From positions 15,948-79,947 of the forward strand of contig CANQRF010000007.1 of NCBI GenBank assembly GCA_947626195.1: a DNA stretch of 64,000 nucleotides, written 5' to 3'. Shown here piece after piece: positions 836 through 32,459 of the stretch. The stretch is from an uncultured Eggerthellaceae bacterium. Lineage in GTDB: Bacteria; Actinomycetota; Coriobacteriia; Coriobacteriales; Eggerthellaceae. Position numbers and translations under genes: made by a program. The notes beneath the pieces were generated by a model. It was not told the DNA's origin. It saw only the letters and a list, made by a program, of their open reading frames with translations, and did no database searches. The first letter of the stretch is position 1. Every line of letters begins with the position of its first letter.

Positions 836-852
836 TTTTGCTCCCGAATAAA

Positions 853-2301: not shown

Positions 2302-2324
2302 TCAATTATAGACAAATGCTCTAT

Positions 2325-3368: not shown

Positions 3369-3377
3369 GCGGCTCGC

Positions 3378-8083: not shown

Positions 8084-8164
8084 AACAACATTTCTTTCTG
8101 CTTCATATGAGAGATTTTTTCTATTTAAGGTGCATAAAAATCATAATTATTCGTCGACAAAACA

Positions 8165-9289
8165 TTATGGCTCAGGAGATTCAATTGCGCGTTCACATGC
8201 CAATTTTATATTTTCGCGAAATGCCTCTCGTGAAAACTGACGAGCGCGTTTAACCATCGCCTCTAAAGATATTTCCGACGTTCCAGAGGCTTGTCCATTT
8301 TCAAACTCCTCAATACAACGCACGAGAGCGTCTGCAGTTTGTTCATAAAAGAACAAACCCGTCTTTTTATCGATGACGGTTTCCAGAGCTCCACCTTCGC
8401 CGAAGGCGATAATGGGGCAGCCTGCCGACATAGCCTCAACCGGCGTTAAACCAAAATCCTCTTTCCCGGGAAACAGAAGCGCCTTAGCACCTGAATATAA
8501 TAGCCACTTCTCATCATCGTTAAGAAATCCCGCAAATGTGACCGTAGGCCCCGCAATCTCCTTAAGAGCCGGAAGTTCTTCTCCTTCGCCCACAACAATA
8601 AGAGGTCGCCCAAGCTGGGTGCAAGCACGCACGGCAAGATCAACTCTTTTATACGAAACCAACCTTGATACAACAAGGTAAAAATCATCTCGCTCAGAAG
8701 GTACCGATAAAGGACTCACTTTGATACCAGGGTATATTATCTCCGAATCTCGGCGATAATACTTATTAATACGCTTCGCTACATTGTGACTGTTCGTCAT
8801 AAAATAATCCACTCGTTGCGCAGCAAGGTAATCCCATTGCCTCACTTTGTGGATAAAATACGGCATAGCAAGTTGTTTATAGAGAGGGGCACTCTTTAAA
8901 TAATCATAATAAAGATCCCACAGGTAACGCGTGGGGGTATGGCAATAGCAAACATGCTTTGCCGAGGAAGAAGTAATGACACCCTTACAGCAGCTCGAAC
9001 AAGAGGAAAGAACCAAATCGTAAGAGGTTAGATCGAGTGCCTCCCAAGCTTGGGGCATCAAAGGAAGCAAAAGTTTATGGTGTGTTTTAGCGCCTGGAAT
9101 TTCTTGGAGATACGTTGTCCTTATTTCACATTCGCGCGTCCATGCTGGCGCTTTCTCATCATCATATACTAGGGTATAAATAGGCGCATCAGGGAAAATG
9201 CTGTGGAAATCATAGAGAACCTCTTCTCCTCCACCCGTTCCCACTAGCCAATCATGGACAAGCGCTACTTTTACTTTTTCTAGTCCCAA
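8165..9289 (-). CDS. Glycosyltransferase family 4
   Basis: 374 aa. N-terminal VALVHDWLVGTGGGEEVL and C-terminal FPGKEDFGLTPVEAMSAGCPIIAFGEGG (GT-B/GT4 motif). Confidence 0.75.
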   Translation of the reverse strand: MGLEKVKVALVHDWLVGTGGGEEVLYDFHSIFPDAPIYTLVYDDEKAPAWTRECEIRTTYLQEIPGAKTHHKLLLPLMPQAWEALDLTSYDLVLSSCSSCCKGVITSSSAKHVCYCHTPTRYLWDLYYDYLKSAPLYKQLAMPYFIHKVRQWDYLAAQRVDYFMTNSHNVAKRINKYYRRDSEIIYPGIKVSPLSVPSERDDFYLVVSRLVSYKRVDLAVRACTQLGRPLIVVGEGEELPALKEIAGPTVTFAGFLNDDEKWLLYSGAKALLFPGKEDFGLTPVEAMSAGCPIIAFGEGGALETVIDKKTGLFFYEQTADALVRCIEEFENGQASGTSEISLEAMVKRARQFSREAFRENIKLACERAIESPEP

Positions 9290-9407
9290 ACCAACTTCTC
9301 CCGTTTAAAGTAGATATTGCCTTTCAATTCATCTCAATTATTCCCGTAAAGAGCGTCATGCGTAAGAACTATTTGAATCAATCAAGAACCCTCTGATCTC
9401 AGCAGCA

Positions 9408-10031
9408 CTACAGGATTCGAAAATCTCGCTTCTCAACAGAACCATGTTCTTTACATAACACCGACATCATCATGTGATCGAGCACCATATGTATATCTTC
9501 GGCTATTTGCATATCATCTACAGGAACGTGCAAATGATAGTCGACCATCTGCCCCAGTTTTCCGCCATCGTAGCCCGTTAAAGCAACAGTAAAGACACCA
9601 AGCGCTTTCGCCTCTTCGCTAGCAAGACACACGTTCCGAGAGTTGCCCGAGCCTGATATAAGAATCAAAACATCGCCAGATTCCGCAAGAAGCTTCAATT
9701 GGCACGAAAAGATGTGATCGTAATCGATGTCGTTTGAAATAGCAGTAGCCATCGGTGTGTTGTCGCTCAAACACATCATTTTGAAAGGGATGGAGGTTGC
9801 TTCTTGGATACCCTTTGAAAAGTCGCATACAAAATGGCTTGCCGTTGCCGACGATCCCCCATTGCCGCATACAAAAAAACGGGCACCTTCACGAGCCTTA
9901 TCAACGAGAAAGTTCATGACATGGGACACGTTTTCTAAGTCTAGAGCATCTAAAACACGCTTTTCACGTTTGATATAAGATGCTAGTTCCTTGGTGTAAT
10001 CAGTCATCAATATTTTTTGCTTTCTTGCCAT
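9408..10031 (-). CDS. gmhA: SIS-domain phosphoheptose isomerase paralogue, copy 2
   Basis: 207 aa with FFVCGNGGSSATASHFVCDF and ISGSGNS motifs. It is clearly diverged from the 6445-7119 copy. Confidence 0.7.
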   Translation of the reverse strand: MARKQKILMTDYTKELASYIKREKRVLDALDLENVSHVMNFLVDKAREGARFFVCGNGGSSATASHFVCDFSKGIQEATSIPFKMMCLSDNTPMATAISNDIDYDHIFSCQLKLLAESGDVLILISGSGNSRNVCLASEEAKALGVFTVALTGYDGGKLGQMVDYHLHVPVDDMQIAEDIHMVLDHMMMSVLCKEHGSVEKRDFRIL

Positions 10032-10978
10032 CGAAGGGCATCGCTTAATATTTCATCTATAGCGCTGTATGAAGCATTCCACTGAAGAACTTCAGATGCT
10101 TTTTTCGAGGATGCAACAAGGCTTTCAGGATCACCCTCTCTTCGGGAAGCAATACGGTAGGGGACTGGTTCTCCCGTGATCCGAGAGAGAGCCCCTATCA
10201 TCTCAACAACCGAATACCCATGCTCGCTTCCAAGGTTGAGGCAGACCGAACTCCCACCACCATGAAGATATTCGAGAGCTTTAATATGAGCATCCGCTAT
10301 ATCTAGGACATGAATGAAGTCCCGAATACAAAACCCATCAGGAGTAGGATAATCATCGCCAAACACTTCAAACGGCTTTCCCGTTAATGCGGCCTTAATC
10401 ATAACTGGTATCAGATGTGTTTCCGGGCTATGAGCTTCCCCTATTTGGGCGTCTTTGGAAGCACCTGCTGCGCAGAAATACCTAAGAGCGCAAAATCGAA
10501 GCCCATATGCATGAGAATAATCGTAAAGCATGCGCTCATCAATCAGCTTGGTCGTACCATAGGGGTTAATTGGGTTTTGTGGGTGAGCCTCGTCAATGGG
10601 GGTGTAAAGCGGTTTACCGAACGTGGCGGCAGAAGATGAGAACACCATGTAACGCACACCGTGTTCCACCATCGAAGAGAGCAAGGTTTCCATTTTCGAA
10701 ACGTTATTCATGTAATAACGCGCAGGACGAATAACCGAGTCCGGAACGCTCGCAAATGCTGCTAAATGTATTACCGCGTCAATATCATGCTCGGCGAAAA
10801 TTTGGTCGAGCAGAATCCTGTCCCCATAATCACCCTCGAAGAAGCCGCCCGAGAGAACCGCCTCTCGATGCCCATCGCTCAAATCATCGAGCACGATGGT
10901 ATCGTAGCCAGCCTCCCTCAAAGCCCGATTAACATGGCTTCCTATATATCCTGCTCCACCTGTGATTAACACACTCAT
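10007..10978 (-). CDS. galE: UDP-glucose 4-epimerase
   Basis: 323 aa. MSVLITGGAGYIGSH Rossmann motif, SSSAATFG and YGTTK (YxxxK), with GalE-type length. Confidence 0.85.
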   Translation of the reverse strand: MSVLITGGAGYIGSHVNRALREAGYDTIVLDDLSDGHREAVLSGGFFEGDYGDRILLDQIFAEHDIDAVIHLAAFASVPDSVIRPARYYMNNVSKMETLLSSMVEHGVRYMVFSSSAATFGKPLYTPIDEAHPQNPINPYGTTKLIDERMLYDYSHAYGLRFCALRYFCAAGASKDAQIGEAHSPETHLIPVMIKAALTGKPFEVFGDDYPTPDGFCIRDFIHVLDIADAHIKALEYLHGGGSSVCLNLGSEHGYSVVEMIGALSRITGEPVPYRIASRREGDPESLVASSKKASEVLQWNASYSAIDEILSDALRWQESKKY

Positions 10979-11544
10979 ATAGCTTCACCAAGTATCATTT
11001 CAACAGCAGAAGTGAGGTCGTGCGCCTTAACCCAGTTGGAAGCATCCGCCTCTCCATCATCAACAAGAATACCTTTGATTCCGCATGCATCAGCAGCTTC
11101 CATATCGCTTTTACTGTCGCCAATCATAAACGATCTGCTTTTATCTATATCGAAGTCTTCAAAGGCTTTCTTGAACAATCCTGGTTTCGGCTTACGACAT
11201 TCGCAAGTACCATCCTCATGTGGGCATACATAAATAGCATCAATACGAGCACCGCACTTACATAGCTCTTCTTTCATATATTTATGAATGCTCTCAACAT
11301 CCGCCATCGTCATAAGCCCACGAGCAACACCTCGCTGATTTGTTGCAACAACCACGAGATACCCCGAATCGTTTAAGCGCTTAATGGCGTGTACCACATT
11401 CGGCAAAAGTTCAAACTCTTGCACATTCCTCACATAGGTGGCTGGTATCCCTGTTTTCTTGTTAATGACACCATCGCGGTCTAAGAACACGCAAGGGAGA
11501 GCTTTTGAAGCAATACTAGTCACAGCAGATAATGCGCGTTCCAT
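10975..11544 (-). CDS. gmhB: D,D-heptose-1,7-bisphosphate phosphatase (HAD-IIIA), stand-alone copy
   Basis: VFLDRDGVINK, VVVATNQRGVARG, YVCPHEDGTCECRKPKPGLF and GDSKSDMEAA: HAD motifs plus the GmhB Zn-binding loop. Confidence 0.8.
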   Translation of the reverse strand: MERALSAVTSIASKALPCVFLDRDGVINKKTGIPATYVRNVQEFELLPNVVHAIKRLNDSGYLVVVATNQRGVARGLMTMADVESIHKYMKEELCKCGARIDAIYVCPHEDGTCECRKPKPGLFKKAFEDFDIDKSRSFMIGDSKSDMEAADACGIKGILVDDGEADASNWVKAHDLTSAVEMILGEAI

Positions 11545-12484
11545 AGCTGGTGAAAGTAAACGGGAGCTCTTTCAAGTCAAGGTTTTTTCTTACTTCATCT
11601 TGGCGCTCTTCATCAACATAGAAAAGAAGGAACCCGCTTCCTCCTGCGCCGAGCAGTTTACCTCCCAGAGCTCCAGCTTCCAAGCCTTTCCGATATAACT
11701 CGTCGATCCCTGAGTTTGATATTGAGCCGGCAAGCGTACGTTTTAGTCTCCAACCCTCCGAGAGCAGCTCTCCGAAATATGCGTTAAATCCGTTCGTTTC
11801 GAGATCTTCCTTCAGGCTGTATGCTTGATCCCTCATACGGCACATCGTTGCCTCATTTCGGGACATTTCCTTTTTCTGCTCTGCAAGTATCTGGGCGGTT
11901 TTATGCTCACCGCCCGTGTAGAACATCACCAACTTGCGATCGCTTTTGCGGTAATCATTGTCCGAGAGATTGATGCGTTCCCGCACCACTTTTCCATCCT
12001 GGCAAAAGGCAAAAAAGTTCAACCCGCCACAAGCTGAAGCGTATTGGTCTTGTTTCCCAATGGGGTTTCCGAGAATATCGATTTCAATCTCACACGCTTT
12101 TTCTGCCAGATCGAGCGCTGAAAGCTGCGACCCTTTATAAAGATAGAGCGCATTCAAAAGACCGACGGTGAAGGCCGAGGACGACCCCAGACCCGTTCCT
12201 TTCGGAATGTCGGAAACCGATGTTATCTCCACACCATGCGTGATACCCGTCATGCGAAGGCATTCGCGCACAATATCGTGTTTGACCTGGCTCGCGTCAT
12301 CGACAATTTCTGTATCCGAATACGACACACGCACCGAGTCGTCAAAACGTCGATTCACTGTGATATACATATACTTGTTTATAGCAGCGCTCACTACCGC
12401 CCCGCTGTATTTGGAATAGAAGTCTTTGATGTCAGTACCGCCACCGACAAAACTTATCCTAAAAGGCGTCTTTGAAATTATCAT
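11516..12484 (-). CDS. GHMP kinase paralogue (heptose-7-phosphate kinase type), copy 2
   Basis: 322 aa with MIISKTPFRISFVGGGTDI, PKGTGLGSSSAF and GGKLLGAGGSGFLLF. The architecture matches 7091-8083 but the sequence is diverged. Confidence 0.7.
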   Translation of the reverse strand: MIISKTPFRISFVGGGTDIKDFYSKYSGAVVSAAINKYMYITVNRRFDDSVRVSYSDTEIVDDASQVKHDIVRECLRMTGITHGVEITSVSDIPKGTGLGSSSAFTVGLLNALYLYKGSQLSALDLAEKACEIEIDILGNPIGKQDQYASACGGLNFFAFCQDGKVVRERINLSDNDYRKSDRKLVMFYTGGEHKTAQILAEQKKEMSRNEATMCRMRDQAYSLKEDLETNGFNAYFGELLSEGWRLKRTLAGSISNSGIDELYRKGLEAGALGGKLLGAGGSGFLLFYVDEERQDEVRKNLDLKELPFTFTSYGTRIICCD

Positions 12485-12485
12485 T

Positions 12486-13121
12486 CTATTTTCCCGTGCG
12501 CTTAAACAAGACTTTCACTGTCAGCACTATAATCTTTGCATCAAGCGCTATTCCTTGATGCTCAACATAATAGAGTTGTAGTTTCTTTGCTTCTTCGCTC
12601 AAATAGGGAACGCTACTTCTCCCAATTACTTGCCAATATCCGGTAATGCCTGGACGCACCGAGAGTAGTAAATCTTCATTTTTGCCATACGTTTGCGCCT
12701 CTCGAGCAGTGACTGGCCTTGGTCCGATTAAGCTCATCTCCCCCACGAGAACATTCAATAATTGGGGGAGTTCGTCGATGTTGTGAACCCTGAGAAATCT
12801 CCCGAGGCGCGTTATCCGCGGATCATCGAACGACTTATCACCTTTAAGATATAGTTCTAGCTCTTCTTTCGATAAGTATTTTTCCAAGTTATCCGAGTCT
12901 TCCACCATGCTTCGAAATTTGAGCATTTGAAACGGCTTTTCACCTTTACCGAGACATGCTCGTTTATGAAATACTTCTCCGCCGTCTGATAGTTTTATCG
13001 CGACACCTACAATAACGCACGGAACGAATACCACAGTAATAGCCAGAAGCGATATGACAACATCGAACGATCTTTTTATGGGGTGGTAATACCACTTTGG
13101 CTGCTGCTCAGAATTCCGCAT
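12486..13121 (-). CDS. Initiating phosphoglycosyl transferase (bacterial sugar transferase family, small PglC/WbaP-C type)
   Basis: 211 aa with one N-terminal re-entrant/TM helix, followed by KFRSM, DELPQLLNVL.GEMSLIGPRP and RPGITGYWQV motifs. Confidence 0.8.
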   Translation of the reverse strand: MRNSEQQPKWYYHPIKRSFDVVISLLAITVVFVPCVIVGVAIKLSDGGEVFHKRACLGKGEKPFQMLKFRSMVEDSDNLEKYLSKEELELYLKGDKSFDDPRITRLGRFLRVHNIDELPQLLNVLVGEMSLIGPRPVTAREAQTYGKNEDLLLSVRPGITGYWQVIGRSSVPYLSEEAKKLQLYYVEHQGIALDAKIIVLTVKVLFKRTGK

Positions 13122-13821
13122 AGGTAATCATCCTATGCGGGGAGCTAAACAGGAATTTAGTAAGCCCCCCCCCAGGTCTAAATATTGCGCTTACAGTCTT
13201 GACTAATACCCAAGCGTCAAATCTCAAACTCCTATGATCGATATAATATAGTTCAAGCTGTTGTCGCTCGTGATCTTTATATCTCGTCTTCCCTCTTCCC
13301 ACGACTTGCCAATACCCCGTAATGCCGGGTCGAACCGACAAGAGCTTACCGATGTCGTTTCCATAAGCCTGAATCTCGCTTTTGACGACAGGACGTGGTC
13401 CCACGATTGACATTTGCCCAAGAAGCACATTTATAAACTGCGGGATCTCGTCAATGGATGTCTTTCTTAGGAATCTTCCAAGAGGAGTCACCCTTGGGTC
13501 GTTTTCCAGTTTTCGTTCCTGCCTCCAAGCTTCTAATTGACGATCATCCAAATACTTTTCAACATCATCTGCATCTGCGACCATAGTTCTGAATTTCAAC
13601 ATCGGAAATGTTGCAAGCGGTTCTTTTGGAGTTTGCTTCTTGCAACATTGCTGTGAGTATATTGGCGCACCAAAACTTGTAAGAGATATAGCTATACATA
13701 CTATTAGTGCTGGAATGCATAAAACAACAATTACAAGCAACGAAAAAACGATATCAAAGGTGCGCTTAAAGAACAGATAGGCTGTGTTTTCTCTTGCAAT
13801 GTTGCCCATACTTAGCGTCAC
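13108..13821 (-). CDS. Second initiating phosphoglycosyl transferase (tandem paralogue)
   Basis: 237 aa with the same motif set (KFRTM, DEIPQFINVLLGQMSIVGPRP, RPGITGYWQV). It is the first gene of the minus-strand cluster. Confidence 0.8.
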   Translation of the reverse strand: MTLSMGNIARENTAYLFFKRTFDIVFSLLVIVVLCIPALIVCIAISLTSFGAPIYSQQCCKKQTPKEPLATFPMLKFRTMVADADDVEKYLDDRQLEAWRQERKLENDPRVTPLGRFLRKTSIDEIPQFINVLLGQMSIVGPRPVVKSEIQAYGNDIGKLLSVRPGITGYWQVVGRGKTRYKDHERQQLELYYIDHRSLRFDAWVLVKTVSAIFRPGGGLTKFLFSSPHRMITYAEF

Positions 13822-14386
13822 TCATGCCAACGATATATTATGAGACCGTCGGCTCAACCTCCTTTGTTTAAAACCTTCACGAAAACACATGCGATGAATA
13901 GCAATTGCTAGAACCGGATGCTTCGCAGGACTACGCTGATGTGTGTCAACGCATTACCCTGCTTATGGCATGGCTTCGCCATTGCCTAAGGCTTTATGCT
14001 GCTATTCCCACAACGAAACGCACACGCGGCATCGTTTCGTCTCTATGTTTCCGCTGATAACCAACGGGGCAAAACTTCTTTGAGCAGTATAGTATACTCG
14101 TTTCTAAATTGCAGGAATATTGTTAACTTTGTGCATGTCTATACATGGAAAAATGATAATGAAGCGCCTAACAGGTTCTCGGAATCAGCCTTCGAGGGAA
14201 GCCCGAGAAGCTTTCTTCGCTCATGGGAATCCTATACAACTCAAGTAGGTCATGTTGCTCAATTGTGATGACATTCCCTGAAACGGCTGCTAAAATCCCC
14301 CAAGCAGATAAAGAAACTCGACGGCGGCTACCGGTCGTTTTGACCGACGTGCGGCCAAATAGTGGAATATAGAACAGGGATAGGAA

Positions 14387-18344: not shown

Positions 18345-18498
18345 CACCGTTGAGTCATGGACGAGGGTGCAAGGCATTTCTCACTGTTCCACTTAGAGTA
18401 AATCAGCATCGGTTTAACTTTTGTTTAATCGTAATTAGTATAAATATGATATAACAATATCTGCTATCACGAAGACTTCTTTCTGAGAGGAATACACG

Positions 18499-19914
18499 AT
18501 GCCTTTTGTGGGCAGAAACGCCGAACTTTCAACTCTTGAGCGGCTCTATACGAGCGATCGCTTCCAAATGCCTATCATCTACGGGCGTCGCCGAGTCGGG
18601 AAAACATCGCTCATATCTCATTTCATCCAAGGAAAACCTGCAATTTATTTTTCTGCGATTGAATCAACCGCCAAAGAAAACCTTATGGCGCTCAGCAGGG
18701 CTATCGTAAGCTTGGAATCTGACGGCATTCCTCGTGCAAATGACGCGCCCGCGCTTACTTTCAACACTTTTGGCGAAGCCTTCACCTATGTGTTCGATTT
18801 GGCGCGCACGCGCCGCATCGTTTTCGTCATTGACGAATATCCTTATCTCGCGCTCAGCGATAGATCGGTCTCCTCGGTGCTGCAGCATCATATAGACACC
18901 GAAAAAGATACGAGCAAGCTCTTCCTCATTCTCTGCGGCTCGTCCATGAGCTTCATGGAGCATCAGGTGCTTGGCTACAAGAGCCCGCTCTATGGAAGGA
19001 GAACCGCCCAGATTCGCGTTAAGCCATTTACGATCATGCAAGCAGCAGAGCTTTTGCATACAAGCAACGCCGAAGATATCGTATCGTGGTACGGCATGGT
19101 CGGCGGGGTTCCCCTCTATCTTGAGCAGTTCGATCCAGCGATGAGCCTGCAGGAAAACATGGCGTTCAACGTCCTGCGGCCTGCCTCGTTTCTTTACGGT
19201 GAGCCCGACTCATTTCTGCAGCAAGAGATACGGGAACCAGCGCGCTACAATGCTCTCATCCGGACGATTGCCGAAGGCGAGGGCAAGCTCACTGAGATTG
19301 CCGATTCGACAGGCATTGAGCGCTCTGCCGCCACGAGCTACCTAAAAGGTCTCATGGAGCTTGGCATCATCCGCCAAGAGAAGCCGGTAGTTGATGCGAA
19401 TCGAAAAAAGGTGCGCTACGTTTTATCTGACAACCTTTTCAGGTTCTGGTATCGCTTTGTGCCGCGGTATCTCACGCCCATCCAGGCAGGACGTTTCAAG
19501 GAAGTGGGTTCCCTCATCGCAAGCAAGCATCTCAGCTCCTTTCTGGGTCCCGCGTTCGAAGAGATATGCCGTCAATGGCTCGTTGCCTCTATGGGCACAA
19601 ATGACATTCCGCTCATTCTCGACATCGGACGATGGTGGGGAAACGACCCGCTGCGAAAGGAGCAGGCAGAGATGGACATCGTCGCTATCTGCGAAGATGG
19701 CAGCTTGATCTGCGGAGAATGCAAGTGGCGGGAAAAGCCCGTTGATGCATCCGTGCTAGCTACCCTGCAACATCGAGCCGACCTCATCAAGGAGGATCGT
19801 TTCGTGCGCTTCCTCCTGTTCTCGAAGAGCGGTTTCACCGATGAGTGCCGTGCGGCGGCTGAGAAAGCGAATTGCGTGCTCATAAGCCTTGCCGACATGG
19901 GCCTTGGCGCCTAG
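18499..19914 (+). CDS. AAA+ ATPase of the archaeal-ATPase/DUF234 family with C-terminal PD-(D/E)XK-like module
   Basis: FVGRNAELSTLERLY...IYGRRRVGKTSL (Walker A) and VFVIDEYPYL (Walker B). The C-terminus EMDIVAI...GECKWREK resembles the D..E.K nuclease-fold signature of DUF234. The upstream region is AT-rich. Confidence 0.75.
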   Translation: MPFVGRNAELSTLERLYTSDRFQMPIIYGRRRVGKTSLISHFIQGKPAIYFSAIESTAKENLMALSRAIVSLESDGIPRANDAPALTFNTFGEAFTYVFDLARTRRIVFVIDEYPYLALSDRSVSSVLQHHIDTEKDTSKLFLILCGSSMSFMEHQVLGYKSPLYGRRTAQIRVKPFTIMQAAELLHTSNAEDIVSWYGMVGGVPLYLEQFDPAMSLQENMAFNVLRPASFLYGEPDSFLQQEIREPARYNALIRTIAEGEGKLTEIADSTGIERSAATSYLKGLMELGIIRQEKPVVDANRKKVRYVLSDNLFRFWYRFVPRYLTPIQAGRFKEVGSLIASKHLSSFLGPAFEEICRQWLVASMGTNDIPLILDIGRWWGNDPLRKEQAEMDIVAICEDGSLICGECKWREKPVDASVLATLQHRADLIKEDRFVRFLLFSKSGFTDECRAAAEKANCVLISLADMGLGA

Positions 19915-20156
19915 TTATTGGGCAATGATCGCCCTGTTCTTTTTGGAGCTGTGGCGGGAGGTGCGAAGACATCGGACACGAAAACGACATTCGGATGCTA
20001 GACGGGAAGGGCGATAGTAGCAGCTATCGCCCTAACATAAAAACCAAGCGCCGCCCGTCCCTTTAATGTCTATCGGGCTTTGCCAGCTCCTATTCTACCA
20101 TCTTTCGCGCTCCGCGCCTATACCCGGCACCCGTTCTGTAAGAAACCGTCATTTAC
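19901..20156 (+). repeat. Direct repeat copy A (about 250 bp), partner at 23870-24118
   Basis: By-eye alignment to 23870-24118 gives roughly 80-90 percent identity with two small indels. It includes a shared small ORF, a shared hairpin and the shared block TATCGGGCTTTGCCAGC...ATTCTACCATCTT...CCGTTCTGTAAGAAACCGTCA. Confidence 0.85.
19925..20017 (+). CDS. Possible 30-aa peptide (N-terminally shortened copy of the 23849-23980 peptide)
   Basis: ATG at 19925 gives MIALFFLELWREVRRHRTRKRHSDARREGR with stop TAG at 20015-20017 inside the hairpin stem. Same frame and stop position as copy B. Expression is not shown. Confidence 0.25.
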   Translation: MIALFFLELWREVRRHRTRKRHSDARREGR

Positions 20157-20293
20157 CGCAAAGGCGGCCCACTACTGCATTCGCAGTTTAGCAAATGCGC
20201 ATACAGTATTCACGACTATTTAACCAGCGAGCACGATTTTGCTTTGCCTAATCTAAATTAGTCTAATCGTAATTAGACAAAATCATTTCATAT

Positions 20294-20382
20294 ATACCAG
20301 CAGCCAAAACTGGCTGATAAACACGATTGGTACCAGCAATCAACAAATATTGGTACCGCGGATAAACAACCTTGGTACCGCT
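20294..20382 (+). repeat. Left inverted-repeat arm with phased GGTACC-centred sites
   Basis: TTGGTACC at 20327-20334, 20350-20357 and 20372-20379 (22-23 bp apart), plus a degenerate ATACCAGCA at 20294. The arm aligns in reverse complement to 21916-21993. Confidence 0.75.
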
Positions 20383-20622
20383 TAGACTGAGCCTACAATC
20401 CCGTTCGTGCGCCCAATACGAGGCGACATGACGAAAAAGGACCCGATGCCTATGTCGAAGAGCAGAAAGATCATTATGATGCTTGCCAAAGGAGAGTCGA
20501 GCAAGACCGATACCGCAACGGCGCTGCACGTGATCAAGCGCGACGTGTCGGCGGCTTCGGCATCGTCCTTCCCCATATCCGGCGCTGGTAAAATAAGCGG
20601 GAACGTAAGAGACGGAGGATAG

Positions 20623-21773
20623 ATGCAGCAGTTCGAAAACGCCAGCGATAGCGCCCAGAATATTCCAGACGGTGTCTGGAATATTCAGAATACATCCAAT
20701 GAGCTGGCTTTTCCCAACGATATCCGATTCGACAACCACCCATCATTCGACGAGTTGGCCGATGCCATCGAGCAGGTCACAGAGCTCGCCCGCAACATGG
20801 CGGCGCGGCATGTGTATGGCGACCAGCTCTGGGCGTATTGGAACAACGGCAGGATGATCGTCGTATACGAGCAGGACGGGAGCGATCGGGCCGCGTATGG
20901 CGACCAGGCCCTCACCAAGCTCGCAAGGCGCCTGACCGCAAAGCTGGGACGGGGCTTCTCGCGTGCGAACCTCTACAACATGCGCCTGCTCTACCTCACC
21001 CACAGGAACTTCCAGACGCTGTCTGGAAAATTGTCATGGTCCCATTACTGCGAGACCATCACCTTAGAAGACGAGCTGAAACGGAAGTTCTACGAGCGCG
21101 AGGCCGCGAACTCGGGCTGGAGCGTCCGCGAGCTGCGCAGGCAGATGAACAGCCTGCTCTTCGAGCGCATACTGAACGCCAAGGACGATGCCAGGAGAGA
21201 ACACGTTCTGGCGCTGGCGAACGAAGGGGTGGCGTACAGCAAGCCCGCAGACGCCATTCGCAGCCCGCTCGTCCTCGAGTTCCTCGACATCCCCGACGAC
21301 GTCGCGCCTTTGGAGAGGGACCTCCAGCGGGCCCTGATCGGGCAGATCGAGAAGTTCATGCTCGAGCTCGGGCGGGGCTTCATGTTCGTGGGCAGCAACG
21401 TCCGGATCCCCGTCGGGGACGATACCGACTATGCGGACATGGTCTTCTACTGCAAGCCGCTTAGGGCATACGTGCTCATCGAGTTGAAGACGGACAAGCT
21501 GATGTCTTCGGCGGTGGGCCAGATCAACGAGTATCTGAACTACTACGCTGCCGAGGTCAACGACGAATACGACAATCCCCGATCGGCATCATCTTGTGCA
21601 CGGACAAGAACAACGTTCGGGCGGAATACGTGATCGGAGGGTTGAGCAATGCGATTTTCGCCTCCACATACACTCTGAGGCTCCCCGACAAGGGGCAGCT
21701 GGAAGACCAGGTGCGCAGGACCATCGAGGCCAACGAGCGCAGGGCGCTCATAAGCGGCGGAGGTGATGCGTAG
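20623..21773 (+). pseudogene. DUF1016/YhcG-type PD-(D/E)XK nuclease gene, disrupted by a frameshift at a C-run
   Basis: The ORF 20623-21633 encodes ...YADMVFYCKPLRAYVLIELKTDKL (D...ELK nuclease motif) ...EYDNP, then leaves frame. The shifted frame from 21582 continues with IGIILCTDKNNVRAEYVIGGLSNAIFASTYTLRLPDKGQLE... to TAG at 21771-21773. This is the expected family C-terminus. The break lies at CCCC 21577-21580. Confidence 0.8.
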
Positions 21774-21915
21774 CCTCGACCCGGATGCGGAGCACTTCGC
21801 GTTTTTGGACGAGACGGCGGTCAGCGGAACTATCAACACGGTGCTGGCGGCGTCGTGTCTGGTGCGGGTTCATGGAAGCGCGCGATTACTTCGCCGAGAA
21901 GAAGCTGGCTGGATA

Positions 21916-21993
21916 GCAGTACCACCTGCTATTTACCCGCGGTACCAAAAATCATTGATCGTTGGTACCAAGCCAGCTGATTGCCGGTACTGC
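21916..21993 (+). repeat. Right inverted-repeat arm with phased GGTACC-centred sites
   Basis: AGTACC at 21918, GGTACC at 21941 and 21964 (the latter inside the palindrome TTGGTACCAA) and GGTACT at 21986, spaced 23, 23 and 22 bp. The flanks CGCGGTACCAA are the reverse complement of the left-arm TTGGTACCGCG. Confidence 0.75.
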
Positions 21994-22065
21994 GAGTGTT
22001 TATTACTCACCAAAACTGACACCGCTGCACTATCGCTTGCTTTGCTTTCATAAATCTGAAAACAT

Positions 22066-22142
22066 CGATTCGCACAATCTCATAGTTATGCGCATAATCT
22101 CAACTTTGTGCGAATAAAGTCATGATTGTGCGCATAATGGTT
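22066..22142 (+). repeat. Tandem array of four 20-bp units (core TGCGCATAA / palindrome TTATGCGCATAA) upstream of the AlbA_2 gene
   Basis: Cores at 22069 (TTCGCACAA), 22089 (TGCGCATAA), 22109 (TGCGAATAA) and 22129 (TGCGCATAA), with exact 20-bp phasing. The segment is AT-rich. Confidence 0.85.
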
Positions 22143-22205
22143 AGATTATACTGTTCCCCATAAGCTTTACAGCACCCATTACGACCCTTCGAAGATTGGA
22201 TATAT

Positions 22206-23397
22206 ATGGGCTTCATAAGCGATTACAAAGATCAAATCGAAGGCCAAAGCCTTGAATTTAAAGAAGCTGGAACTCGATTGCCGGCTAATCTTTGGGAAAC
22301 GTATTCGGCCTTTTCCAATACCGAAGGCGGTCAGATCATACTTGATGTATCTGAGCATCATAATGACGATGGCCAGTGACGATGAGCTTGCGCGAATGGA
22401 GCACGATGCGCTCTCTAATGCCGATAACGCCATTGTTGAAGATTTTGATATGTCGGCCTTCAATAGCTCAACGATCGCGACTTACCGAAATCTTCTCACT
22501 CATGAGAAGCCCTCTCACCCTTGGCTAAGAGACGATGACGAGGACTTTCTCTATCATTTACGTGCTATTGACCGTGATCGTGATGGCGAATACCACCCAA
22601 CCAGAGCGGGGCTCTTGGCATTCGGCAACGAGTTTGAGATATTGCGAATTGTCACTGATTACCATCTCGATTATCGTGAGCAAACTGATCCGGATGTTCG
22701 GTGGAACAATCGGCTCGACTCCATGAGCGGAGACTGGAGCGGCAATCTCATTGACTTCTACCTCAATGTCACACAGCGCATCGATCGAGCATTGCCCCAA
22801 TCGTTTGGCCTCAACGATAACGGGATGCGGCACACGAGCCGTACCGAAATCAACGATGCAATCCACGAGGCAATCGCAAACGCTTTGATTCACGCCTATT
22901 ATGGCACAGGCGCAACCGTTACAGTTGTTTTAGAGCCTCATAGGCTCTTGGTTTCCAATTCGGGGACGTTTCTTATCAGCAGGGAAGTTGCTATTGCGGG
23001 AGGGATAACCGAGACCCGTAACCCCATTCTTGCACGCATATTTTCACTTATTGGAATTATTGATCGTGCAGGCAGTGGGTTAAGGAAGATCTATTCAACC
23101 TGGGAAGAGAAGTTTAAGGAGACGCCCCTTCTTAAGGAGGCATACGCGCCGGATAAAGTTGATATTGAGCTGCCGCTTTCAATCAACTTCAACGTGAAAC
23201 GGCCTTACACACACGTTCCTCATGAGGCAATTCTTGACCTCTGCCATAATCAGGGCGAGATAACGGTGAAAGACCTCACAGCCCAGCTTGGAATGAAGCA
23301 AAGCACCGCTCAATTTGCCTTGAGGAGCCTTGCCGCACAGGGGCAACTTGTCAGCGAACGGAGGGGCAGGGCTTTCGTTTATCGTCTTGCGAATTAA
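22206..23397 (+). pseudogene. AlbA_2 (Schlafen-like) + HATPase_c_4 + C-terminal wHTH protein gene, frameshifted near the 5' end
   Basis: ATG at 22206 gives MGFISDYKDQIEGQSLEFKEAGTRLPANLWETYSAFSNTEGGQIILDVSEHHNDDGQ, stopping at 22377-22379. This is the hallmark AlbA_2 N-terminus (SLEFKE...AFSNTEGG). The rest of the protein (TRAGLLAFGNEFE..., ALIHAYYG..., wHTH LGMKQSTAQFALRSLAAQGQLVSERRG) is in a different frame, in ORF 22252-23397. Confidence 0.75.
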
Positions 23398-23456
23398 ATT
23401 GAATCGAGCCACGCGGTCATATACGCCTAAAGTTCCTTTGTTCGTTTAATCGAGCA

Positions 23457-23640
23457 AGAATGCGCACAATGACGAAATTGTGCGCATAATCTTAACTTTG
23501 TGCGAATAAAGTCATGATTGTGCGAATAAAGTTGTAATTATGCACATAAAGTTATCTTTAAACGCATAATCTGCCAATTGTGCGCATAATCTCATGATTA
23601 TGCGCGCAGGCTTAACTTTATGCGCAATGCGCGCATCCCC
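23457..23640 (+). repeat. Tandem array of nine 20-bp units (same family as 22066-22142) downstream of the AlbA_2 gene
   Basis: Cores start at 23461, 23481, 23501, 23521, 23541, 23561, 23581, 23601 and 23621 (TGCGCACAA, TGCGCATAA, TGCGAATAA, TGCGAATAA, TGCACATAA, AACGCATAA, TGCGCATAA, TGCGCGCAG, TGCGCAATG). The period is exactly 20 bp. A roughly 45-bp stretch (ATAATCTnAACTTTGTGCGAATAAAGTCATGATTGTGCG) is shared with the upstream array. Confidence 0.85.
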
Positions 23641-23848
23641 TTTTAACAAATCCTCCTACCCGTTCCATATGAAACCATCATCTATGAAGATGCTGCACTG
23701 CCCTTACTGGCACGATACGCAGCTGTCACACGGCGTAAAGTTTTTGGGTTTGTCAACAATGCTGGCATGCAGGCGCTTCCTGCGCTACCATGTTTCGGCT
23801 GGCAAGTCCGATGCCGGGCGGCGCTTCTTCATGGAAAGGAGCACCGCT

Positions 23849-23980
23849 ATGGTGGAACGAGTTCTAGCTGCCTTGGCAGCATTGGCAACGATAGCCCTGT
23901 TCTTTTTGGAACTGTGGCGGGAGGTGCGGAAACATCGGACACGAAAACGACATTCGGATGGTAGACGGAAAGGGCGATAG
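23849..23980 (+). CDS. Possible 43-aa small membrane peptide with strongly basic tail
   Basis: RBS-like GAAAGGAG lies 7 nt upstream of the ATG at 23849. The peptide is MVERVLAALAALATIALFFLELWREVRKHRTRKRHSDGRRKGR, one hydrophobic helix plus an Arg/Lys-rich tail. The 28 C-terminal residues are conserved in repeat copy A. The listed 128-aa ORF start (23594) lies in the repeat array and is not credible. Confidence 0.35.
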   Translation: MVERVLAALAALATIALFFLELWREVRKHRTRKRHSDGRRKGR

Positions 23981-24118
23981 CGGCAACTATCGCCCCTAAT
24001 TAAAAAACCGGCGCCGCCCGTGGCTGTAAGTCTTATCGGGCTTTGCCAGCACATATTCTACCATCTTCCGCATCCTGTGCCCATACCCCCGCCCGTTCTG
24101 TAAGAAACCGTCACTTAC
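23870..24118 (+). repeat. Direct repeat copy B, partner of 19901-20156
   Basis: See copy A. This copy abuts the stop codon of ecfT (24115-24117). Hairpin GGGCGATAG-CGGCAA-CTATCGCCC here versus GGGCGATAG-TAGCAG-CTATCGCCC in copy A: identical stems, different loops. Confidence 0.85.
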
Positions 24119-24885
24119 AACAAGACGCCGAGGAGGATGGCAACAACCAAAATGCACACGCAGATGACGAGCGAGACGACATCGAGCGTCGCGAAGGGAT
24201 ACTGCTTATAGCCGCTCTCGCGCGTGCGGAGGTTGAACCCGCGCACCTCGGCGGCGATCGCCGCGCTGTTCGTCTTGCGCACCGACGACACCAGCAGCGG
24301 GATGCACAGCGGCACCATCAGACGGATCTTCTTCACGATGGAACCCTGGTCGAACTGCACGCCGCGCGCCGTCTGCGCCTCCATGATACCCGCCATGTCG
24401 TTCATGAACACGGGGATGAAGTGCACCGTGGAGGTGAACGTGAACGCGTATTTGTAGGGCACGTGCAGCACCTTCACCACCGAGTTCGCGAGGTCGGTCA
24501 TCTTGGTCACATACATCACGAGGAAAAGCGGCACGGCAGCCGCCACGAGGCGCAGGATGATCGTCACCGCGCCGATGACGCCGCCCGTGCCGATGTAGCC
24601 CCACGGCAGCGGAACGAGCACCATGCCGGTGGAGTTCGTGAGCAGCTGGATGACGGCGAGGATGAGCGAGAATATCGTCACCGCCTTCGCAAGGCCCATC
24701 GCCTGACGCGTCATCTTGCAATGCGCCGCCAAGGCGAAATCGAAGATGAGGACGCACGCGAGGAATATGAGGTTCGACGTGCAGAAGCACGCGACCGAGA
24801 TGAGCAGCGCGCAGAACAGCTTTGCAACGGGGTTCATCCGATGAAGCAAGCTGTTGCCCGGCACGTATTCGAGAAACCCTGTCAT
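24115..24885 (-). CDS. ecfT: ECF transporter transmembrane (T) component
   Basis: 256 aa polytopic protein with a typical EcfT N-terminus (YVPGNSLLHRMNPVAKL) and the Ala-Arg-Gly coupling motif (MEAQTARGV). It follows two ECF ATPase genes. Confidence 0.85.
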   Translation of the reverse strand: MTGFLEYVPGNSLLHRMNPVAKLFCALLISVACFCTSNLIFLACVLIFDFALAAHCKMTRQAMGLAKAVTIFSLILAVIQLLTNSTGMVLVPLPWGYIGTGGVIGAVTIILRLVAAAVPLFLVMYVTKMTDLANSVVKVLHVPYKYAFTFTSTVHFIPVFMNDMAGIMEAQTARGVQFDQGSIVKKIRLMVPLCIPLLVSSVRKTNSAAIAAEVRGFNLRTRESGYKQYPFATLDVVSLVICVCILVVAILLGVLL

Positions 24886-29735: not shown

Positions 29736-30662
29736 TCATGCGTGGACGGCGAGGGGCAAGAACGCCTCGTTGACGATGACATGGAACATCTCGTGATAGA
29801 ATTCGCGCTCTACGGCAGGGAGAAGCGATAGCCCGAACGCCTCTTCGGGCACTGAATCGAGGATTTCGTCAATGGCGCTGAGATCTAAAGCCTGCGCTAC
29901 GCGCGAAATAGCAGCTTTCATCTGCGGATCCTCAGATTCGTGCATAAACTTGAAGGGATGGATGTGCTTCCCCTCATTATCAAGATAGAAGGAGACCCCC
30001 GTTTTGAGAGCATCCTCCCGCAGAAGCCCTTCGCCTTTTATGCGTGAGGCAAACACTTCTTCCAAGCGTTTCCCGAAAAGACAGCTCCCATTGTCGTAAA
30101 CCGGCGCAAGAACGCCGCTCTTTCCATCGGGCGAAGCTAAAACACCCCAATTGCCGTTGTTTCGATCGCCGTTTCTGATAAGGGCATCCACGACGAACAT
30201 ATCCCAAAAACGCTCGATCACCCCCTCGGTGTTTTGGAGGGTAAGCGAATGATCGATCACGGCGAGAATATCCGAGAGATATTCCCCGCCCTCATCTGAG
30301 CTGCTGGTCTGCAGCCCCGCGTCCTCCTCGTGAAGGCGGTTCTTCAGAAGCGAGATTTCGACAAGCCGCCGGTCTACGGCGAAGTCCTTGCATGCGCACA
30401 CAACACGCCCGTCGCGGACGCCGAGCAGCGTCTCGTGAACAGGGATGCCGAGCGAGGCATAGATGTGCGACCCGATATACTCGCATATCGGATTGGTGGC
30501 ATATGAAGGGTGATTGCCCCGCAGCCGCTTCAAGGACGCGGGAAATTTCAGCATCCATCGCTCGCCATCGATGTCGATGGCATATTTGGTGGAGGCCCGA
30601 CCTCCATAAACGCCGGAATAGTCCTCTTCGAATTTATTGAAATCGTATATCTCTTGTGTCAC
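29736..30662 (-). CDS. HipA-C/CtkA-like serine/threonine kinase, stand-alone
   Basis: 308 aa. WMLKFP (ATP-binding Lys region), catalytic-loop-like DALIRNGDRNNGNWG and DFG-equivalent APVYDNGS. No HipA N-domain is present. It starts 24 bp after the recN stop on the same strand. Confidence 0.65.
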   Translation of the reverse strand: MTQEIYDFNKFEEDYSGVYGGRASTKYAIDIDGERWMLKFPASLKRLRGNHPSYATNPICEYIGSHIYASLGIPVHETLLGVRDGRVVCACKDFAVDRRLVEISLLKNRLHEEDAGLQTSSSDEGGEYLSDILAVIDHSLTLQNTEGVIERFWDMFVVDALIRNGDRNNGNWGVLASPDGKSGVLAPVYDNGSCLFGKRLEEVFASRIKGEGLLREDALKTGVSFYLDNEGKHIHPFKFMHESEDPQMKAAISRVAQALDLSAIDEILDSVPEEAFGLSLLPAVEREFYHEMFHVIVNEAFLPLAVHA

Positions 30663-30686
30663 TGAACCATCACCTCTGAAGCGCCA

Positions 30687-32336
30687 TCAGCTTAACCCGT
30701 TTTTGCCGCTAGGAAAACCAGCGGAAGCTAGAAGCTCGCGGGCGTGGGCGAGGGAGGCTTCGGTCTGGCTACCGGAAAGCATGCGGGCGATCTCGCCGAC
30801 GCGCTCTTCATCTGATAGCTCCACAATGTGAGTGGTCGAGGCTTTTTTCGCATTGCCCTCGCGCATGACGCGGAAATGGCGGTTGGCATAGACGGCCACC
30901 TGCGCCAGATGCGTGACGACGATCACCTGATGAGTGAGCGAGAGCTCGGCAATGAGCTCGCCGAGCGCCTGGGCGGTCGCGCCACCGACGCCGGCGTCCA
31001 CCTCATCGAACACGAGCGACGCCACCTTGTCTCTCGTCCCGAGCACCACCTTGATGGCGAGCATCACGCGGCTTACCTCGCCTCCCGAGGCGATCTTCGC
31101 GAGCGGACGCGCGCTCAGGCCCTTCCCCGGGCGGAAGCAGAACTCAACGCTTTGCGGCGAATGGGCACTCCACTGCTCACGCGGCAAATCGGTGACCTCG
31201 CAGGTGAGCTCGGCGCCGTTCATCTGGAGGCGATCCATCTGCCCGCTCACCTGACGAGCGAACTGCGGGGCAATCTTCCGACGTGCCTTGCCGAGCTCCC
31301 GCGCCGCCTTATCCAGCGCCGCCTCGGCGGCGTCAAGCTCGGCGAGGGCCTTCTCACGGCGTTCCGTGGCATCGTCGACCATTCCCAGAAGCCGCGCCGC
31401 CTCGTCGCGCCGCGCGAACACCTCTTCCATCGTGGGGCCAAAGGCGCGCATGAGCCCTTGGAAGGCGGCAAGCCGCTCCTGCGCAGCGGCAAGCGCCTCG
31501 CCGTCGAACTCGACCTTATCGCGATAGGCGCGCATCTCACGCGACACGTCTTCGAGCATGTAGCTCGCATCGCGCAGCGTGGCAAGCGGCTTCTCGAGCG
31601 ACCCATCGTAAGCAGCCGCGTTTTCCAAGGTGGAGAGCGCCGACGAGATGCGATCAAGCGCCCCGTCCTCATCGGCAAGCGCCTCATACGCGCCGTTCGC
31701 ACCCATCGCCAGCACTTCAGCGTGCTCGGCGCGATGCGTGTCGCTGACGAGCGCTTCATATTCGCCCACCGAAGGGCTCACCGCCTCGATGCGGGAAAGC
31801 GTGAAGCGCGCCTCTTCGAGCGAGGCATCTGAGAGCGCCGCCGCATGGTCGATCTCCGCAAGCGCCGCGCTCGCCGCCTGTGCGTGCCCAAACGCTTCCT
31901 TATAAGCGTGCTGCAACGGCGCTAGCTCTTCGCCTGCCCACAAATCCAAAAGCTCGCGGTGCGTGGCGGGGCGCATGAGCGATTGGTGCTCGTGCTGGCT
32001 GCAGAGATCGATCGCGTGGCCGACCTTCTGCGAGAGCTCGCCCAAGCTCACCATCTCGCCGTTGATCGTGGCGCGCGACCTGCCGTCGGCATTCACCTGG
32101 CGCGTGATGACGAGCTCGTCCTCGCCCAAGAACAGCCTTCCCGAAACGCGCAGGGCATCGGCGCCCTCGCGAATAAGGCCACGATCGCCCCGCTCCCCCA
32201 TCAGGAGCTTGAGCGCTGAAAGCAGCGCGGTCTTGCCCGCGCCGGTCTCGCCGGTGATGACCGTCAGCCCTTTGTCGGGCATAAGGGCAGCGGAAGTGAT
32301 GAGCGCGAGATTCTCGACGCGGATCTCATCGATCAT
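30687..32336 (-). CDS. recN: DNA repair protein RecN
   Basis: SMC-like protein with MIDEIRVENLALI, Walker A GETGAGKT, a long coiled coil, and C-terminal SGGE...LVFDEVDAGVGG. Start moved from the ORF start (32456) to the ATG at 32336, which gives the canonical N-terminus. Confidence 0.9.
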   Translation of the reverse strand: MIDEIRVENLALITSAALMPDKGLTVITGETGAGKTALLSALKLLMGERGDRGLIREGADALRVSGRLFLGEDELVITRQVNADGRSRATINGEMVSLGELSQKVGHAIDLCSQHEHQSLMRPATHRELLDLWAGEELAPLQHAYKEAFGHAQAASAALAEIDHAAALSDASLEEARFTLSRIEAVSPSVGEYEALVSDTHRAEHAEVLAMGANGAYEALADEDGALDRISSALSTLENAAAYDGSLEKPLATLRDASYMLEDVSREMRAYRDKVEFDGEALAAAQERLAAFQGLMRAFGPTMEEVFARRDEAARLLGMVDDATERREKALAELDAAEAALDKAARELGKARRKIAPQFARQVSGQMDRLQMNGAELTCEVTDLPREQWSAHSPQSVEFCFRPGKGLSARPLAKIASGGEVSRVMLAIKVVLGTRDKVASLVFDEVDAGVGGATAQALGELIAELSLTHQVIVVTHLAQVAVYANRHFRVMREGNAKKASTTHIVELSDEERVGEIARMLSGSQTEASLAHARELLASAGFPSGKNGLS

Positions 32337-32459
32337 GATTCGACCTTTCTCCCAGCGTGATGAAATTGGATGCTCGGGCGCTGCCCACCACGGTTGTGCT
32401 TCTGATGCTTCGCGAAAATGTTCGACGCTTATTATACCGCCGAAGCGCCTCGCCAAAGC

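Follow-up and report, generated by a model that had tools for sequence, protein, structure and literature searches.

Arrays of helically phased repeats that adjoin the gene of the protein binding them are an architecture familiar from plasmids. The F centromere sopC comprises 12 repeats of 43 bp directly downstream of sopB, parC of pSK41 and R1 comprises phased repeats of 20 bp or 11 bp upstream of parMR, and tubC of pBtoxis is bound by TubR, a winged helix-turn-helix (wHTH) protein. In P1, repA lies between incC (5 iterons) and incA (9 iterons), of which incA is a titrating, handcuffing sink. Repetitive extragenic palindromes (REPs) are dispersed genome-wide, and the REP-associated tyrosine transposases (RAYTs) are Y1 (IS200/IS605-like) transposases. 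Here we describe two arrays of 20-bp-phased palindromes on either side of a decayed Schlafen-type gene in a 64,000-nucleotide stretch of contig CANQRF010000007.1 from an uncultured Eggerthellaceae bacterium (the window), together with homologous loci in which the array motif varies with the recognition helix of the adjacent protein. What is new is the attachment of centromere- or iteron-like arrays, probably cognate sites of the encoded protein, to a chromosomal Schlafen-GHKL-wHTH gene; the array architecture itself is known.

Prokaryotic Schlafens were recently shown to be phage-defence tRNases, and the Schlafen nuclease is a defence effector that can be toxic (PMC13056530). Slfn-HisKinase-HTH proteins make up 19.2% of the 5,930 prokaryotic Schlafens in that study and are the second most common architecture; its main text assigns no role to their HTH and describes neither a DNA target for it nor a repeat array. 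According to the same text, the HisKinase-type Schlafens that were assayed gave no defence against the phage panel, the HTH-bearing type lying outside the tested architectures. According to PMC12680541, AlbA_2 domains of bacteria act as toxic nuclease effectors and are enriched in the vicinity of defence systems. We found no description in the literature of arrays beside Schlafen or COG2865-type genes. As far as the main text of PMC13056530 allows comparison, the protein family described here has the domain order and the Ex4(E/D)xK motif of the Slfn-HisKinase-HTH proteins, and the window gene, near the candidates PDC-S02 and PDC-S27, shares the defence-gene context of Schlafens; unlike the described proteins, the window copy is inactivated.

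The arrays resemble plasmid centromeres (sopC, parC, tubC) in being helically phased, dyad-symmetric repeats next to the gene of a presumed HTH binder, in their variable and largely dispensable copy number, and in the fast divergence of specificity between relatives. They are also very similar to P1 incC–repA–incA, with four units on one side of the window gene and ten on the other; by this analogy, the upstream set, over the promoter, would serve autorepression, and the downstream set would be a sink. Partition centromere-binding proteins, however, are small ribbon-helix-helix, HTH-ParB or wHTH (TubR) proteins, whereas the wHTH here is the tail of a 488-aa Schlafen-GHKL protein. No motor NTPase gene was seen in the insertion that holds the window gene or among the called genes of three homologue loci, the examined genes are solitary and chromosomal with nothing that needs partition, and, unlike P1, there is no Rep_3/RepA protein, no origin feature and no plasmid context, most homologues being one-sided. 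With REP/RAYT systems the locus shares a gene with putatively cognate palindromic repeats at its flanks and a separate repeat class for each protein clade, but the motif occurs only beside the gene (as judged from the window's other 62 kb and from homologous loci), and the protein has no transposase domain.

Phased arrays around a decayed Schlafen gene

The arrays and the gene that they enclose comprise the following features of the window.

22066–22145, no strand: upstream array of four 20-bp units, each a 12-bp near-palindrome TT[G/A]TGCG[C/A]ATAA plus an 8-bp spacer
22147–22152, plus strand: TATACT, read from the sequence, resembling a −10 hexamer and lying directly 3' of the last upstream unit
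22206–22379, plus strand: N-terminal Schlafen (AlbA_2) remnant of 57 codons, which keeps the Ex4ExK motif (IEGQSLEFKEA) and ends at a stop made by the deletion/frameshift
22363–23397, plus strand: 344-codon open reading frame (ORF) P0001, with linker, GHKL domain (HATPase_c_4) and C-terminal wHTH
23200–23394, plus strand: C-terminal wHTH, recognition helix G-M-K-Q-S-T-A-Q-F-A-L-R-S-L
~23419: degenerate extra downstream unit, off register by 1
23438–23637, no strand: downstream array of ten 20-bp units in register (23438, 23458 ... 23618)

Both arrays keep a fixed 20-bp register (upstream units start at 22066, 22086, 22106 and 22126), and Tandem Repeats Finder, applied to the window, reports period-20 arrays at 22071–22138 (3.4 copies) and 23476–23605 (6.5 copies). 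With at most one mismatch, TTRTGCGMATAA matches 13 times in the 64 kb against 1.02 expected, a count reached by 0 of 100 shuffles, and all 13 matches fall inside the two arrays. Conservation over 13 units is ~84% in the 12-bp core and ~53% in the 8-bp spacer, and a core so much better conserved than its spacer suggests a constrained binding core and not a fresh slippage product. The upstream and downstream arrays have a near-identical direct repeat of 45–55 bp in common, spacers included, as do the arrays of L003 (~45 bp), the locus of an 80%-identical orthologue.

An earlier note on this DNA had proposed 20-bp-phased arrays on both sides of the gene, and the repeat finder, the register and the motif count all bear this out. 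Its count of four upstream and nine downstream units needs adjustment: the register is exact, but the upstream array consists of three good units and a weak one (22066, 8 of 12 core positions matched), and downstream there are ten units, beginning with TTGTTCGTTTAA at 23438. That unit matches 9 of 12 core positions, as do each of those at 23458, 23598 and 23618. The position of the 23438 unit and of the degenerate one at ~23419 is kept in L003, and with these extra units the downstream array begins about 22–41 nt past the stop codon. The 12-bp perfect palindrome (TTATGCGCATAA) is real but sits at 22086–22097, one position to the left of where it had been placed (22087–22098), and the supposed alternation of A- and B-type units is not strict, the downstream order being A, B, B, B-like, A-like, A. 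The description of the arrays as AT-rich islands fits the window (39% G+C against a background of 61%) but not the family, in which most arrays are GC-rich.

The TATACT hexamer at the end of the upstream array is a possible promoter element of the Schlafen-type gene, judged from its sequence and position; a promoter consensus scan returned a different weak match, inside the upstream array (22069–22098), and not TATACT.

The enclosed gene is a prokaryotic Schlafen with an AlbA_2 nuclease domain, a HisKinase-like GHKL ATPase domain and a C-terminal wHTH. Pfam finds AlbA_2, HATPase_c_4 (E = 3e-10) and wHTH at the gene, the 57-codon ORF matches the start of SLFN_AlbA_2, and the wHTH, which forms the C-terminal ~65 aa of the 488-aa three-domain protein, matches PaaX-, MarR-, GntR- and ArsR-type profiles (Pfam, NCBIfam). 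An AlphaFold model of the intact orthologue P0002 from L003 (mean predicted local distance difference test score 87) gave Foldseek matches to the uncharacterised protein DIP2311 (3lmm), to an AlbA_2 domain solved by nuclear magnetic resonance (2kyy), to the catalytic domains of GHKL histidine kinases and PDK, and to ArsR/AspA-like wHTH domains. Pfam, NCBIfam and fold searches revealed no Rep hit and no transposase or recombinase domain in the enclosed protein, and they gave a single wHTH, where initiators of the Rep_3/RepA type have two WH domains. In the homologues, E14, E19 and K21 of the Ex4ExK motif and the ATP-binding motifs are invariant or nearly so, and the N-box and G-box residues of the GHKL domain are invariant.

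The domains named in the earlier note, AlbA_2 and wHTH, are thus recognisable, but the gene is not intact. Alignment with P0002 (488 aa, 80% identical) places a 260-nt internal deletion at ~22375 and a frameshift in the AlbA_2 domain, of which the first 57 codons, including Ex4ExK, remain and the rest is deleted; what the window retains is therefore either a pseudogene or a remnant truncated at the N terminus. A split form of the gene exists elsewhere: in the relative P0027 (L199–L204), an AlbA_2 ORF of 148–166 aa is followed after 27 nt by a 333-aa HisKinase-HTH ORF, an arrangement kept in 16 contigs from many samples, and several other homologues of 332–349 aa also have no AlbA_2 domain. The split form and these shorter homologues suggest recurrent loss or separation of the nuclease.

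Arrays and recognition helices across homologues

The homologues are ~485 aa long and concentrated in Coriobacteriia (Olsenella, Thermophilibacter, Slackia, Adlercreutzia, Eggerthellaceae). A genome scan gave 80 loci, which we divided into the 18 closest (40–51% identity, nearly all labelled Coriobacteriia) and 62 distant ones; a metagenome scan for further close relatives yielded four more (L096–L099). Arrays lie within 350 bp of the gene in 16 of the 18 close homologues but in only 8 of the 62 distant ones. Array density in the close set is 1.68 per kb within 350 bp of the gene and 0.15 elsewhere in the loci, an 11-fold difference, compared to 0.19 and 0.071 per kb in the distant set. Within each homologous locus the motif is restricted to the immediate flank or flanks of the gene, usually to one side; the two-sided layout described for the window recurs in L003, whose gene has the same ATGCGCATAA-type core at either flank in units of conserved position, but not in most homologues.

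Arrays of individual loci illustrate the variety of units and positions.

L004, upstream: 14 units TTGTAyGCrTACAA
L006, after the stop codon: six 20-bp units with TTCGCGAA
L009, after the stop codon: (CCCGAACGTTCGCCGTAGAC) x 3.4
L014, upstream: four perfect 20-mers
L016, downstream: 31-bp units with TGCGCGCGCA
L017, after the stop codon: (CGCGAACGTTCGGGAACCAA) x 5.9, perfect
L019, downstream: seven units with TGACGTCA
L021, upstream: TTCCCAAATGGGAA every 39 bp
L092, from 2 nt past the stop codon: CCGTTCGTCGCGAACGCACC in 20.6 perfect copies, with one unit also upstream

In the close clade the repeat period is 20 bp in six cases, 30 bp in four and 40 bp in three, with 31, 34, 41, 42 and 50 bp once each, and the split-gene relative P0027 has a 10-bp period. 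These are whole numbers of DNA turns, as expected for binding to double-stranded DNA, and the units are palindromic or contain inverted half-sites across the homologues. In nine loci (L006, L009, L011, L012, L017, L018, L092, L097, L098) the array starts 2–8 nt past the stop codon, and many such post-stop arrays are followed by a GC-rich hairpin.

The motif follows the recognition helix of the neighbouring wHTH.

Helix QSTAQ, motif TGCGCATAA: window, L003
Helix RQAAS, motif TACGCATACA: L004
Helix R-[V/A]-A-Q (R-A-I-Q in L007), CGAAC half-site in varied arrangements: L005, L006, L007, L009, L011/L012, L015, L017, L018, L092, L097
Helix R-[S/T]-A-Q, motif GGACGCG: L008, L014, L088
Helix R-R-A-Q, motif CCCAAA: L021, L098
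Helix R-T-V-Q, motif TGCGCGCA: L016
Helix R-G-V-Q, motif TGACGTCA: L019

Two motif switches occur between close relatives, and in both the helix changes too: L016 differs in this way from L015, L092 and L097, to which it is 69–70% identical outside the wHTH, and L019 from L018 (70% identical outside the wHTH). The wHTH region is also much more divergent, with 26–31% identity against 55–59% for the rest of the protein. The helix–motif code partly follows phylogeny. This covariation is the best available evidence, drawn from sequence comparison, for regarding the arrays as cognate sites of the adjacent protein, and it makes the suggestion of the earlier note that the enclosed gene's C-terminal wHTH binds them very probable.

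Assemblies appear to differ in copy number. One and the same protein, P0044, is accompanied by 20.6 units in one contig and by 10.6 in another contig of the same metagenome, and at L097, the locus of its 87%-identical orthologue, there are 1.6 units and, ~155 nt upstream of the start, one isolated unit. At P0027, (TTGGCGCAGG)n stands ~100 nt past the stop; four listed loci have 3 copies and one has 10, and a single inverted copy comes next. In old arrays (window, L003, L004), the core has been kept while the spacers have drifted.

In the three loci whose neighbourhoods were examined, each homologue is a solitary chromosomal gene with housekeeping genes on either side. The same chromosomal position, with the same upstream neighbour, is occupied in L006 (Thermophilibacter) and L009 (Olsenella), which carry different arrays.

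The insertion and its surroundings

The window gene lies in an insertion delimited by a long direct repeat.

19921–20161, plus strand: left copy of the direct repeat, 241 bp, a partial duplicate of the ATPase_2–ecfT spacer at the left edge of the 3,963-bp insertion
20195–20202, no strand: isolated core ATGCGCAT, just inside the insertion
23884–24123, plus strand: right copy of the repeat, with 84% identity to the left one and contiguous with the ecfT 3' end

The 3,963-bp segment between the 241-bp repeats holds the YhcG and Schlafen modules. In L194 (GCA_947626665.1), whose ATPase_2 is 90% identical, the site is empty: ATPase_2 is followed by a 235-bp spacer (L194 1872–2106) and ecfT, and this spacer aligns to both junctions of the window. 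The uninterrupted arrangement in L194 identifies the segment as an insertion, and the long, diverged duplication suggests single-crossover integration of a circle carrying a homologous spacer rather than transposition. No empty site was found among strains with an identical EcfT. The isolated core noticed earlier at 20195–20202 is indeed present.

The insertion is part of an islet of candidate defence genes, in which the ATPase_2/DUF234 gene (18499–19914) corresponds to PADLOC PDC-S27 and the YhcG/DUF1016 gene (20623–21633) to PDC-S02. The YhcG gene is truncated (336 aa versus ~382). An ECF transporter on the minus strand follows the islet, and a low-GC polysaccharide cluster lies to its left. 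Taken together, the deletion in the nuclease domain, the degenerate array units and the truncated YhcG alongside, all inside one insertion, mark the window system as a relic.

YhcG and a small ORF upstream of it (20452–20622) are bracketed by inverted 40-nt repeats with 83% complementarity (20317–20381 and 21932–21990). These consist of 22–23-bp units containing TTGGTACC and hold 5 of the window's 8 GGTACC sites. The idea that the YhcG gene follows the same array rule was rejected, its close homologues (L182–L190) being without TTGGTACC units.

CTAAT-N4-ATTAG dyads occur at 18420–18445, ~60 nt upstream of ATPase_2/DUF234, and at 20248–20276, where the dyad is found twice more in tandem just inside the insertion. 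The copy upstream of ATPase_2, which L194 shares, probably serves as an ordinary conserved promoter or operator. Beside ecfT, a 43-codon ORF (23849–23980), followed by a hairpin, encodes a hydrophobic-then-basic peptide, MVERVLAALAALATIALFFLELWREVRKHRTRKRHSDGRRKGR, perhaps a small membrane protein; the left direct repeat contains a second copy of the ORF's 3' half (19921–20015).

Farther out, positions 1–14000 of the window carry low-GC (37–50%) minus-strand genes, some for sugar transferases and one for a GHMP kinase, and after them come genes for Wzz, sortase and LytR-CpsA-Psr. In a genome of ~60% G+C, the cluster is probably a cell-wall polysaccharide locus that was acquired horizontally. 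At 29736–32456, a HipA_C-domain kinase gene adjoins an SMC_N/AAA_23 ATPase gene on the minus strand, which could be a further toxin/defence-type pair.

Flanking repeats were also seen around two homologues. In L084 (Thermophilibacter mediterraneus), a 141-nt inverted repeat with 99% complementarity (4755–4895/7102–7242) surrounds the Schlafen gene and its array; it consists of the 5' ends of two divergent paralogues with SLH domains and could permit inversion of the 2.2-kb segment. In L088, a 40-nt direct repeat (83% identical; 4473–4512/6562–6601) around the array and the Schlafen gene sits at the 3' ends of both neighbouring genes, recalling the duplicated-spacer insertion of the window. Long flanking repeats are not a general sign of mobility: they are present in the window, weakly so in L088, and absent in L014, L017 and L004.

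Possible roles of the arrays and their meaning

We read the arrays as cognate sites for the wHTH of the adjacent protein, which they would control in cis, and assign this reading a probability of roughly 0.6 on the strength of the sequence comparisons above. One wHTH dimer would occupy each 12-bp palindrome, and the 20-bp spacing (~1.9 turns) would set the dimers nearly on one face of the DNA, permitting a cooperative, centromere-like assembly beside the protein's own gene. Units over the promoter region would repress transcription; in the window, the last of them abuts the TATACT hexamer (22147–22152). Units just past the stop codon may capture newly made protein and hold it in cis, as a sink or tether, and downstream units may loop to an upstream site, as the arrangements in the window and in L092 and L097 would allow. 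Units would be gained and lost by slippage while wHTH and palindrome diversify jointly. Tight control in cis would be biologically sensible for a protein whose N-terminal domain is a potentially toxic tRNase, and autoregulation or sequestration of a toxic nuclease is the likely job of the arrays. The view of the earlier note that they are unlike ordinary single operators is supported.

Several points weigh against control in cis through cognate sites. The link between protein and arrays rests on covariation in ~20 loci that are partly related by descent. L096 has no array, and L010 has none upstream, its contig ending before the downstream flank; distant members mostly have none either, which implies that arrays are dispensable for the basic function of the family. 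Downstream arrays cannot be simple promoter operators, and a sink, tether or roadblock role for them is conjecture, while arrays that follow the stop codon are probably transcribed, which makes a role at the RNA level conceivable. Copy numbers taken from short-read metagenome assemblies can be wrong, and pure slippage also yields perfect, length-variable arrays. In the window itself the gene is broken, so that array function may no longer operate there.

A more far-reaching possibility, which we regard as unlikely though worth stating, is a single-gene immune system of which the array is a functional part: a tether of chromosomal DNA that would act in cis as an antitoxin, itself consisting of DNA. 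The array beginning at the stop codon, the wHTH would capture the Schlafen-GHKL protein during its synthesis, and the captured protein would stay inactive in an ATP-dependent filament. Its release or rearrangement, and with it activation of the tRNA nuclease, would then be triggered by infection cues, for example degradation of host DNA, a change in topology, DNA mimics or phage DNA that competes. The threshold would depend on array length, and fast coevolution of wHTH and palindrome would keep paralogous or incoming systems orthogonal.

The earlier note likened the arrays to plasmid iterons and ParR-type centromeres. The likeness in geometry stands, with dimer-type palindromes spaced at two helical turns, but nothing points to a function in replication, incompatibility or partition. 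If the protein were the initiator or centromere-binding protein of an integrated plasmid-like replicon, with the arrays as its iterons, incompatibility sites or ParR/SopB-type centromere, one would expect the same architecture of phased repeats beside or on both sides of a wHTH-protein gene; single-crossover integration of a circle would fit the 241-bp repeats and the empty site in a relative, the enclosed protein has an ATPase domain of its own, and the fast joint diversification of wHTH and site resembles incompatibility avoidance. This is nevertheless very unlikely. The protein is neither a Rep nor a ParR, ORF and Pfam annotation shows no integrase, relaxase, Rep, ParA, ParM or TubZ in the insertion, and none of these was seen beside the examined homologues, the called genes of three homologue loci containing no Rep or Par motor gene (ParA/ParM/TubZ). 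A scan of the locus found a sole DnaA-box match within one mismatch, inside an array unit, no unwinding element (no AT-rich tract exceeds 40–50 bp) and no turnover of GC skew; a replication origin was rejected on these grounds. Blastn of 21900–23700 against plasmid and phage collections returned no match, an exact scan of viral contigs did not find the motif pair, and protein searches of plasmids, phages and viral contigs, including tblastn, recovered only relatives of at most ~35% identity. The examined homologues are, moreover, solitary and chromosomal with a position kept across genera (L006, L009), and most arrays are one-sided and GC-rich. It is likewise very unlikely that the arrays are ends or recombination sites of a mobile cassette, that is, multiple recombinase- or transposase-like sites (as at Tn7 or Mu ends) for movement, amplification or deletion of the gene. 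The near-identical direct repeat shared by the two flanks in the window and L003, the single upstream unit opposite the downstream array of L092, the imperfect 40-nt repeats of L088 and the location of the window module inside an insertion would suit such a cassette; yet no recognised transposase or recombinase domain is present, sites are one-sided in most loci, orthologues hold their chromosomal position while arrays turn over, and the 241-bp repeats around the insertion are unrelated to the array motif. A CRISPR array, with repeats of 24–48 bp and unique spacers of similar length, is ruled out by the 12-bp core, 8-bp spacer and 20-bp period.

Functionless, slippage-prone minisatellites (variable-number tandem repeats) that the protein does not use would explain why several arrays are perfect, why copy number varies between assemblies and why some clade members have one or two units or none. 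We hold this to be improbable: arrays are 11 times as dense next to the gene as in the remainder of its locus, units are palindromes whose periods are multiples of ~10 bp, the motif follows the recognition helix through two switches between close relatives, and old arrays keep their cores while spacers drift. Little probability also attaches to repeats acting at the RNA level, as hairpins in the 3' or 5' untranslated region that end or stabilise the mRNA (REP-like) or are bound by an RNA-binding AlbA_2 domain. Such a role would be in line with the many arrays that lie 2–8 nt past the stop, are followed by a GC-rich hairpin and are probably transcribed, with the ability of adjacent units to pair, with a terminator-like 14-bp stem at 23578–23609, and with the NCBI family name, 'RNA-binding domain-containing protein'. 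Periods of whole B-DNA turns, dyad-symmetric sites and covariation of the motif with the wHTH helix point instead to DNA, and arrays occur equally upstream of the gene, across the promoter region. The locus has no Rfam match and no tRNA, and, unlike REPs, the motif is not dispersed, with no copies elsewhere in the 64 kb and no RAYT-type transposase.

Under the reading of the arrays as cognate sites that control the protein in cis, the HTH of one Slfn-HisKinase-HTH clade acquires a candidate ligand, a phased array of a protein-specific palindrome beside the gene. The helix/site pairs form a natural set, a ready-made specificity code, and make the question directly testable. If the arrays regulate or sequester the nuclease, chromosomal immunity would be making unusual use of a DNA architecture of centromere or iteron type, and a class of length-variable minisatellites in the genomes of gut Coriobacteriia would also find an explanation. 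The element in the window is a decayed relic of little physiological consequence; its value lies in the family-wide rule to which it leads and in a testable target for the HTH of a major Schlafen class.

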